A stretch of 64,000 nucleotides of DNA from Bugula neritina (Eukaryota > Animalia > Bryozoa), in contig OZ037771.1 of NCBI GenBank assembly GCA_964035545.1, forward strand, positions 4,537,628 to 4,601,627. The letters run 5' to 3'. Shown piece after piece: positions 10,739 through 13,700 of the stretch; position 1 is the stretch's first letter, and every line of letters starts with the position of its first letter. The position numbers were made by a program, and so were the translations under genes. The notes below the pieces were generated by a model, which worked only from the letters and a program-made list of their open reading frames with translations, did no database searches and was not told where the DNA came from.

Positions 10739-13700
10739 TCATTGTGAAGACTCTTGCCTGGCTTGCTTGGTCCAAGAAGGCCAAGCGATGTCATCCGCCT
10801 CGGTCATATCCTCGAGCGCGGGATATAACCTTGCGGATGGGGTGTTTTGGTCAACAGTAGAAATGGGGGTTGTACTTTCTATTTGGGAATGAATGGGGGA
10901 TATTAAGGAATGTAATTCCGTGGCTGTCGTAGTTTCTTCTGCTGTTGGCTGGTGTGTTGTAATTTGTTCTACGTCTACAGCATCTACTACGATTCTGCCA
11001 CGCCTTTTGCAGATGTACTTGATGCATAGATGGTAATATAGTTTCTTGGAGATGAAGACGATTGAAGCAATCGTCACGATGAGGTTTGCCAGCATGGTCC
11101 ACAACTCATATACTGAGGCCACATGACCTCCGAACAAGAAGGAGAAATATGAGTTACCCAGTATGCCTTCCTGGGTCTCTATTCTATTCTTGTCCAAAGT
11201 ATGGTGTGGGGAGCTGACAACCCCAACGGCTTTCAACACCTGCGCTTGGCGGTTGAGTGTTGAAAGGATAGCATTTAAGGAGTGGTGATGACTAAAATCA
11301 GCCCAATTTAGTCTATGTGCGCGACTGAAGATATTTTCGTGTAATTCCAAGGGAGTAGCTCCTAATTTGATGTTTGGCAAGGATAGAATTGTAGTGTTTG
11401 GGGCCAGTTTTAGAGATTCGTTCCATGAATATAGGTAAATAATACCGTCCAATTTCACAGGAACTTCCTCTCTGTGAGTGCAGTCTACGTTGTATGAGTC
11501 AGGGTGTATTATGTTGTCTACAGGGTCCAGATATCCAATGGATTCGAGACCAGCTATAGATATTTGTATCGGCAAGTAGTTGGTGCAATTATTGTGTTTC
11601 ATTTTCAGTAGTTGGTAAGAGGTTCTTTCCAACTCGGTGCAGGGGTACACCTCTAAGTAGCCAGGGCCGGCTTTCGCGACCACGTTACTCAATTGCAACA
11701 TGTGTCTTGCTGCTGTTGTGGGGTGTCGTTCAAGTAGGAGAGTGATGAGGTTAATGGTTTGGGCAGTGTTGTGACACGAATAGTAGTATGAAGTCCAGAA
11801 TAGTTTTTGTGCGGTGGTGATTTGTTCTAACGCTAGAGCTTGCGCTATTGCGTTTATTGTAGACGCATATTGGCCTACGATCTGATATGTGGCTGTGACG
11901 TTGTTACGAATGGTAACATTGTGGAGTGGCGTTATGAACCTCAACATCAGCCCTTGGTCCGACATCGACGTGTTCTTGCCGTGGCAGTCCTTCGTCGAGT
12001 TGATTCCATATCGGGCGAACGTCAAGGCCATCGAGTGGTCGCTACTAACGAAGTGGTTGTCGAAGAAGGTGCCTTCCTCCATGTACCACTCCGTATGTCT
12101 GCAGTGGGTCTGCTTCCGTGGTTCCCATATGAGGATGGAACCGTCGTCCAATTTGCAGCTTCCTTCGTCATATTTGCAATGACGAACGTCGCCTGCAGTG
12201 GACTCGAATTCCTTATCCTCATGCCTTTTGTACACGGTCGCTCTAACTATGCTGCACTGATTCTTCGAGAAGAATTGCTTCTTGCAGCAGTGCTTGTACA
12301 CTGCTTCAACCTTGTTGCGCGTAGTGAAGACACCATCTCCGCCCTTAAGCTCACCCGCGTCACAGTGTTTTGAGGCAACCATGTCGATGCACTCTCCCCG
12401 CGTGATAGGCCGGTTCTCTATGTGAGCATTGCGGATTTTCACATCGGTGAAGAGAGACACTAACGTGGTGACCACAGATTTGAACTTCTTGCATTGGTAT
12501 GCTGGTGACTCCCATTCTATTGTGTTGGGTTTGTATACCATGATTTTTGTCTGTTGGGGCTGTCGCGTGGGGTCAGTCTTGTCATGTCCGGGGCAGGTGT
12601 AGTTAGTGTTCAGTCGGAACAAGTGGGGTTGGTCAGTATGGTGTGAGCCGCATACCATGGGGTTTTTTGCTTCTACCGGGGTCGCTCCACAGCCAAGGAA
12701 ACAGCTTAGCAAGCATAGCATTGCTAGTTGTACCGCATCCATGACTGAGAGTTTTCTGCCACCTCTTCTACTTTTGGCCTTCGGTCCTTTTGCCTTGGGA
12801 GTTAGTTCTACGGCGTTGACGTGTTCCTGGCCTGGATCTTGATTTAGGAACTGGAATGCAAACTCGTCAGGACCAAGGTCGCTGACGACGTTTACATTAG
12901 AGCATTTGCTCCCATAATGCCGGTTCCCGCAAGACTTGCAGGGCCAAGGATTTTGTCCACGCCCATTGCCGTAGTTCTGACCTGTGCGATTGTTATTGTG
13001 CCTGTGTGAAGATTGGTGGTTGTATGACCCTCTTTGTTGGTTAAAAGGGGCTTGGTGTTGGTTAAAAGGGGCCTGATGTTGGTTGTGGGTGCCTTGGTTA
13101 TAGTAGCGCTGTGGTTGGTTGTAACCACCTCTTCTGTTGCCTCGGTTACCACCGCGTCCTCTACCACGGTATCGGTTGGGCTGGTAGTTATTGCTCCTGT
13201 AACTTTTCTCCTCTTGCTCCTTGGATCTTATTGACTGAGCTTTTATAAGCTCAGCCAGACCGTCTATTTGCTTTTGCAGAGGAGCTATGAGTTCTGCTTG
13301 GCTCCGGGTGTAATTAATTTCCGCGACTATTTCTGACTCTATGAAATTTATTTTTTGAGTCTTGAGTGCTCCATCTACCGCTTCAAGCTTCTTTGCTTCC
13401 TCCAAGGTCTGTTGCAGGGTGAGTTCACCCTTCAGAAGGATATCCCTCTGATGGGCTTCGTTCAGCCCTGCAATAAATACGTTCGTCAACACTTTGTCTC
13501 TATATTCCTCCGGCATATCCAGGAATGCCGACTGGCCTTGAGAGACTACTTCTGTGAAGAATTCTCCAACAGTTTTCTTCCCCTGTGACAGTTTCCAGAG
13601 GCTCTTCCCTAGCAGTGGGTTGCTTCTCTGGAACATCGTAGCCAGTTTGGGTTTAAGTGCAGTGTAGCTGGTGGCACAGCCGGGCGCCTGTTTCACTACC

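Follow-up and report, generated by a model that had tools for sequence, protein, structure and literature searches.

A predicted class III fusogen encoded between Gag and a likely leaky stop codon in a Ty3/gypsy element of Bugula neritina

What kind of envelope protein (Env) is encoded between Gag and Pol, where it came from and how Pol would be translated behind it are the questions raised by a long terminal repeat (LTR) element in a 64,000-nucleotide stretch of the Bugula neritina genome (assembly GCA_964035545.1, contig OZ037771.1, positions 4,537,628 to 4,601,627), referred to here as the window. The element is an intact Ty3/gypsy retrovirus-like LTR element on the minus strand of the window (Table 1). 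Its open reading frame 1 (ORF1) has 1210 codons (14371-10742) and fuses Gag to Env, with Env forming the C-terminal half studied in this work. A TGA at 10741-10739 ends ORF1 and pro-pol is then open in the same frame, giving the gene order gag-env-pol. The Ty3/gypsy pol domain set of protease, reverse transcriptase (RT), RNase H and integrase is present in this order, and the best solved relative of pro-pol in a PDB search was yeast Ty3 Gag-Pol (E 1e-104). The Gag half gave a PF03732 match at aa 211-305 (E 1.9e-4, under the curated Pfam cut-off). The insertion is young, given that the two 639-bp LTRs are identical and a GCTA target duplication, present at both flanks, bounds the element. Env is very probably a class III membrane fusogen resembling herpesvirus gB and the nyamivirus glycoprotein (G), and its coding sequence lies between that of Gag and a stop codon at which readthrough into pro-pol is likely.

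By hydropathy, Env has the layout of a signal, an ectodomain and a single C-terminal anchor, with strongly hydrophobic segments (19-residue hydropathy >1.5) occurring in ORF1 only at aa 540-568 and 1084-1112. The arrangement of a basic patch followed by the internal hydrophobic segment was recovered in 9 of 11 long relatives, the pattern failing to locate the other two. The ectodomain contains 16 cysteines, each kept in 69-100% of the relatives covering its column in a 49-row alignment, and eight N-glycosylation sequons. The ratio of nonsynonymous to synonymous substitution rates (dN/dS) among env copies of the same genome was 0.17-0.42 in all five comparisons, and env is under purifying selection. 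Given the conserved cysteines and the low dN/dS, the features of Env are not due to chance. The original prediction, made from the letters alone, had likened Env to a class III viral fusion glycoprotein, and all ten motifs it quoted were located between aa 570 and 1082 of ORF1 (minus strand, window 12664-11126). The aromatic membrane-proximal stretch it described is indeed followed by a transmembrane helix (aa 1089-1111). It had also seen no obvious furin site with a fusion peptide, and in agreement the whole of ORF1 contains no R-x-[K/R]-R site and one minimal R-x-x-R (aa 1017), while hydropathy gave no hydrophobic segment within the ectodomain; Env therefore lacks the furin site and subsequent fusion peptide that mark an F-type Env.

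The best fold matches of the Env model were herpesvirus gB, the G proteins of nyamiviruses, chuviruses and rhabdoviruses, thogotovirus GP and GP64, all viral matches being only about 10-18% identical to Env. Among predicted viral structures (BFVD), nyamivirus G took ranks 1-3, 5, 12 and 13. At the level of sequence, the family profile matched gB with an E value of 7e-17 and relatives of Env matched the Monjiviricetes fusion family. The central helix-like sequence of the original prediction corresponds to a long model helix of 47 residues (ectodomain residues 267-313) that aligned to the central helix of gB. Two loops of the model (ectodomain residues 70-75 and 115-129), placed at hairpin tips, are aromatic or hydrophobic in relatives and are predicted to insert into the membrane. 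The structural comparison that had been proposed as a check placed class III proteins best, and no class I or II fusogen was among the matches listed by four fold searches, which does not by itself exclude families that were not listed. The top clusters in the ESM atlas were Monjiviricetes fusion and rhabdovirus G proteins (0.95-0.94), with a recognition value of 1539, below the 2300 mark, and thus serve as a lead only. Several results count against the class III assignment: the Env query alone found no Env family in Pfam and no PDB sequence match, a five-row Env profile likewise found no PDB sequence match, and the model is a monomer with a predicted template modelling score (pTM) of 0.62 and 56 residues below 50 in predicted local distance difference test (pLDDT). 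The sole Pfam match to the Env query, TraP (E 0.036), was dismissed as noise. The Env fold is also shared by the uncharacterised entomopoxvirus proteins Q9YVZ3, W6JPK9, Q9YW15 and A0A916KPE9 (E 7e-23 to 3e-15, BFVD).

The original prediction further proposed that Env was captured from a virus. One form of this, in which a nyamivirus-like RNA virus sharing the host recently donated Env to the element, would account for the leading ranks of nyamivirus G and for the Monjiviricetes match of the relatives, but is highly improbable. Nyamivirus G is only 13-17% identical to Env, while the relatives at 36-56% identity are retroelement Env proteins, and the 820 clusters of relatives found at E<=0.001 are led by retroelement polyproteins. 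The same Env family moreover forms the C-terminal portion of BEL/Pao polyproteins (P0133 and P0151, 2 of 11 scanned), and the great age of the Env acquisition is argued in the available text of PMC13524379. Because viral proteins are far more distant than these retroelement relatives, this element inherited its Env. Across 29 long relatives scanned, a Gag-type domain preceded Env in 18 and a protease or pol domain followed it in 15. A search of viral contigs returned no relatives among 11 candidates, and ten unnamed Env relatives checked by name included none that was viral, one being a Globodera pallida protein and the others unnamed or 'hypothetical'. Viral capture is plausible only as an ancient event: an ancient exchange of Env with RNA viruses, leaving donor and direction aside, is likely.

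The stop codon between Env and protease is conserved. The sequence CAA TGA C(T/A)A lies in frame with the protease in all four families compared (the window family, a second family of the genome and two metagenome families), which differ at 41-46% Env identity. Among genomic copies, the tail was read in 12; of these, 11 kept CAA TGA CTA and the twelfth is decayed. One of five metagenome loci was frameshifted in the tail. Twelve of 15 near relatives have a terminal glutamine, and in more distant relatives the tail continues into the protease without a stop. The available text of PMC13517186 gives UGA CUA ACC as the context of Sindbis virus, an example of alphavirus type II UGA readthrough, and CAA UGA plus a stem at +12 for Venezuelan equine encephalitis virus. 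The window shares all three features, including a stable hairpin 12 nt past the stop (z -4.7). Since the context recurs in four of four families and matches these alphavirus contexts, the TGA is likely read through into pro-pol, as predicted from sequence. Unlike in the alphaviruses, readthrough here would append Pro-Pol to the tail of Env. Against it stands the restriction of the hairpin to the window family, one of four: no conserved RNA structure was found within 150 nt after the stop in the other three (z between 0.84 and 2.5, or between -0.4 and 0).

The TGA may instead be a real terminator or a disabling mutation, with Pol made from a spliced RNA or by internal initiation. This would sit with readthrough being a sequence-based prediction and with the presence of an ATG 137 codons into the pol frame; that ATG, however, lies downstream of the protease domain (aa 27-115), and the same stop and context in four families at such Env divergence would not be expected of a mutation. 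This explanation is considered improbable. No splice joint that would free pol was present among the 15 of 21 joints listed in contigs of four runs, one on record as RNA and three guessed to be so. In these contigs 27-30 of 30 bins were represented, for the most part at 90-99% identity; one contig spans the stop, although contigs by themselves are no proof of transcription.

If the stop is leaky, Pol would extend the cytoplasmic tail of Env, and the tails themselves carry motifs of interest. YPxL, PSAP/PTAP and PPxY are the three late-domain types that recruit the endosomal sorting complex required for transport (ESCRT) in retroviral Gag, according to the available text of PMC7995964. In the Env tails of 15 near relatives, YPxL was present in 11 (0.34 expected) and PSAP/PTAP/PPxY in ten (0.89 expected), with any late motif in 14; only 3 of 11 Gag halves carried one. 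These late-domain-like motifs are likely budding signals. Three considerations weaken this reading. In a wider set of 64 relatives (four short tails dropped) the share with YPxL drops to 16 (1.2 expected), PSAP/PTAP/PPxY being found in 13 (2.2 expected). As the 15 near tails are related, the counts reflect conservation and are not independent trials. Late-type motifs can also serve lysosomal sorting.

A sequence of events can be proposed in which a single genomic RNA would be translated into the Gag-Env polyprotein. The internal hydrophobic segment would thread the ectodomain into the endoplasmic reticulum, where signal peptidase likely separates Env from Gag, and the second helix would anchor Env and return the chain to the cytoplasm. 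Most ribosomes would terminate at the UGA and a minority would likely continue, such that some Env molecules would carry protease, RT and integrase on their cytoplasmic tail and thereby package them. The element protease would process both Gag and the tail, cutting at V-N/A-A-V-like sites that recur, the YPxL/PSAP/PPxY motifs may recruit ESCRT for budding, and trimeric Env may fuse the particle with the membrane of another cell through two internal fusion loops, requiring no furin cleavage. Readthrough, cleavage, budding and fusion are steps of a model that we infer, and the V-N/A-A-V-like motif, a putative mark of protease sites, is degenerate. Tentatively, and with rather less than even confidence, the clade may use an 'Env-centred' assembly. 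Here the Env tail, not Gag, is what readthrough would extend with Pol for packaging, and the same tail would have taken over the ESCRT late domains from Gag. The class III fusogen and Gag would be produced 1:1, so that the fusogen would determine fusion, budding and the dose of enzymes together, and satellites lacking pol (gag-env-protease) could ride along.

Env might alternatively keep the class III fold without serving cell-to-cell infection, its task being to provide a membrane scaffold on which particles bud inside the cell and Pol is packaged, while the element moves within one cell. That Pol requires translation through Env could be what keeps the env frame open, and deleted copies on C3 and C6 combine a truncated Env with two near-identical LTRs. 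However, the predicted fusion loops are hydrophobic and the cysteines fixed across distant relatives, and the dN/dS values are below what a constraint on the open frame alone would need, making this role unlikely.

Comparison with known systems places the element among published ones. Bryozoan GAG-ENV-POL 'errantiviruses' with an ENV of the HSV/gB type (HSV, herpes simplex virus) and cysteine configuration C2b are described in the available text of a 2026 survey (Chary and Hayashi, PMC13524379). The Ty3/gypsy pol, the gag-env-pol order and the gB-like fold are common to these and to the window element. The published Cpal_errantivirus_5 row for domains I-II aligned to ORF1 aa 605-814 without gaps, with about 103 of 210 residues identical and all ten cysteines of the C2b pattern in place by a count made by eye, positions rather than bridges being compared. 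The window family was not found by name among the ten bryozoan elements of the available survey text, and 'Bugula' is absent from the supplements available; the nearest named protein cluster, 55% identical, contains Bugula neritina proteins. The words 'readthrough', 'read-through' and 'fused' do not occur in the main text of the survey, whose figures lay outside the text search. Nematode non-canonical endogenous retroviruses (ERVs), which the available survey text credits to Sacco et al. 2022, likewise have env between gag and pol. With class III viral fusogens in general, Env shares the predicted fold, two internal loops, a long central helix and a type I membrane anchor, but differs in coming from a Gag polyprotein via an internal signal; it is also shorter than herpesvirus gB, and the element has no partner glycoproteins. 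The glycoprotein of the nematode ERVs is said to have been attributed to capture from an RNA virus and to be nyamivirus-like, which fits the top fold matches to nyamivirus G found here. Those elements reportedly have one continuous gag-env-pro-pol frame, whereas here a conserved TGA parts Env from the protease.

Table 1. Features of the window element, in window coordinates
Feature	Position	Strand	Basis or remark
5' LTR, 639 bp, TG...CA	15446..16084	-	identical to 3' LTR
Primer-binding-site-like sequence	15426..15443	-	begins TGG, two bases inside of 5' LTR; sequence only
Gag part of ORF1 (aa 1-540)	12752..14371	-	capsid-like and basic, RG/NQ-rich regions; knuckle Cx2Cx3Hx4C (aa 478-490)
Internal signal-peptide-like hydrophobic segment (aa 541-568)	12668..12751	-	after basic patch; putative signal-peptidase cut before ectodomain; hydropathy
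Predicted class III fusogen ectodomain (aa 570-1088)	11108..12664	-	profile, structure model and fold searches
Predicted fusion loop 1 (aa 637-643, tip of first long hairpin)	12443..12463	-	loop between model strands 49-69 and 76-85; most aligned relatives aromatic or hydrophobic here
Predicted fusion loop 2 (aa 692-701, including CC pair)	12269..12298	-	model; CC kept in 27/39 rows
Long central helix, domain III-like (aa 836-882)	11726..11866	-	structure model, gB alignment
Transmembrane helix (aa 1089-1111)	11039..11107	-	aromatic membrane-proximal stretch before helix; hydropathy, relatives
Cytoplasmic tail, 99 aa	10742..11038	-	YPxL late-domain-like motif at aa 1182-1186 (window 10828-10814)
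CAA TGA CTA ACC, single in-frame stop, readthrough-type context	10733..10744	-	sequence; context compared with table in PMC13517186
pro-pol frame (protease, RT, RNase H, integrase)	6872..10738	-	1288 open codons, in frame with ORF1; Pfam
3' LTR, 639 bp	3768..4406	-	identical to 5' LTR

The protease active site (window 10660-10600) reads D-A-G in all four families, the usual form of the motif being D-T/S-G. Between pol and the 3' LTR lies a 2.5-kb stretch (4407-6871) without any ATG frame longer than 69 codons. Elsewhere in the genome, only one near-identical RT was found, on C5 and with an internal stop, and deleted copies of the window family (about 7.1 kb, two LTRs, Env shortened) are located at C3:2.68 Mb, C6:0.97 Mb and C2:23.0 Mb. 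The second family, with an Env 43% identical, is a 7.7-kb element with 687-bp LTRs 99.1% identical (C8:1746523-1754239; L028, L045, L046) and has copies on C1, C2, C8 and C9. Behind its Gag-Env frame and the CAA TGA CTA stop it has no more than a protease frame of 169 codons, after which ~700 bp lead to the 3' LTR. No close RT partner for it was found among 86 scored of 1666 candidates. Its C8 copies are duplications rather than separate insertions, since they have flanks in common or are arranged in tandem (period 7054). Outside the element, the window contains 386-nt inverted arms (93%) flanking an AT-rich microsatellite block (21707-23346) and a duplicated host region (42146-57639; 76-94% identical, spaced ~8-10 kb). 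The latter holds a pair of paralogous, Thr/Ser-rich frames (468 and 451 codons), the first without a Pfam match.

Gypsy elements of gag-env-pol order with a class III Env have already been published, including for bryozoans, and the finding as first posed confirms, more than it extends, the survey PMC13524379, the only work to treat this gene order in the literature searched, Sacco 2022 and most subscription papers excepted. For such elements, a readthrough signal, tail late motifs and a pol-less sister family were not found in that literature, the survey figures being a further exception. What is added here is a stop codon that is likely leaky, together with likely signals for budding in the Env tail. 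The working of gB-type element polyproteins is called unknown in the available text of PMC13524379, and the conserved leaky-type stop and tail motifs bear on the dosing of Pol and on the budding of particles. A compact gB-like protein that stands alone in turn bears on the kinship of herpesvirus gB and the G proteins of RNA viruses.
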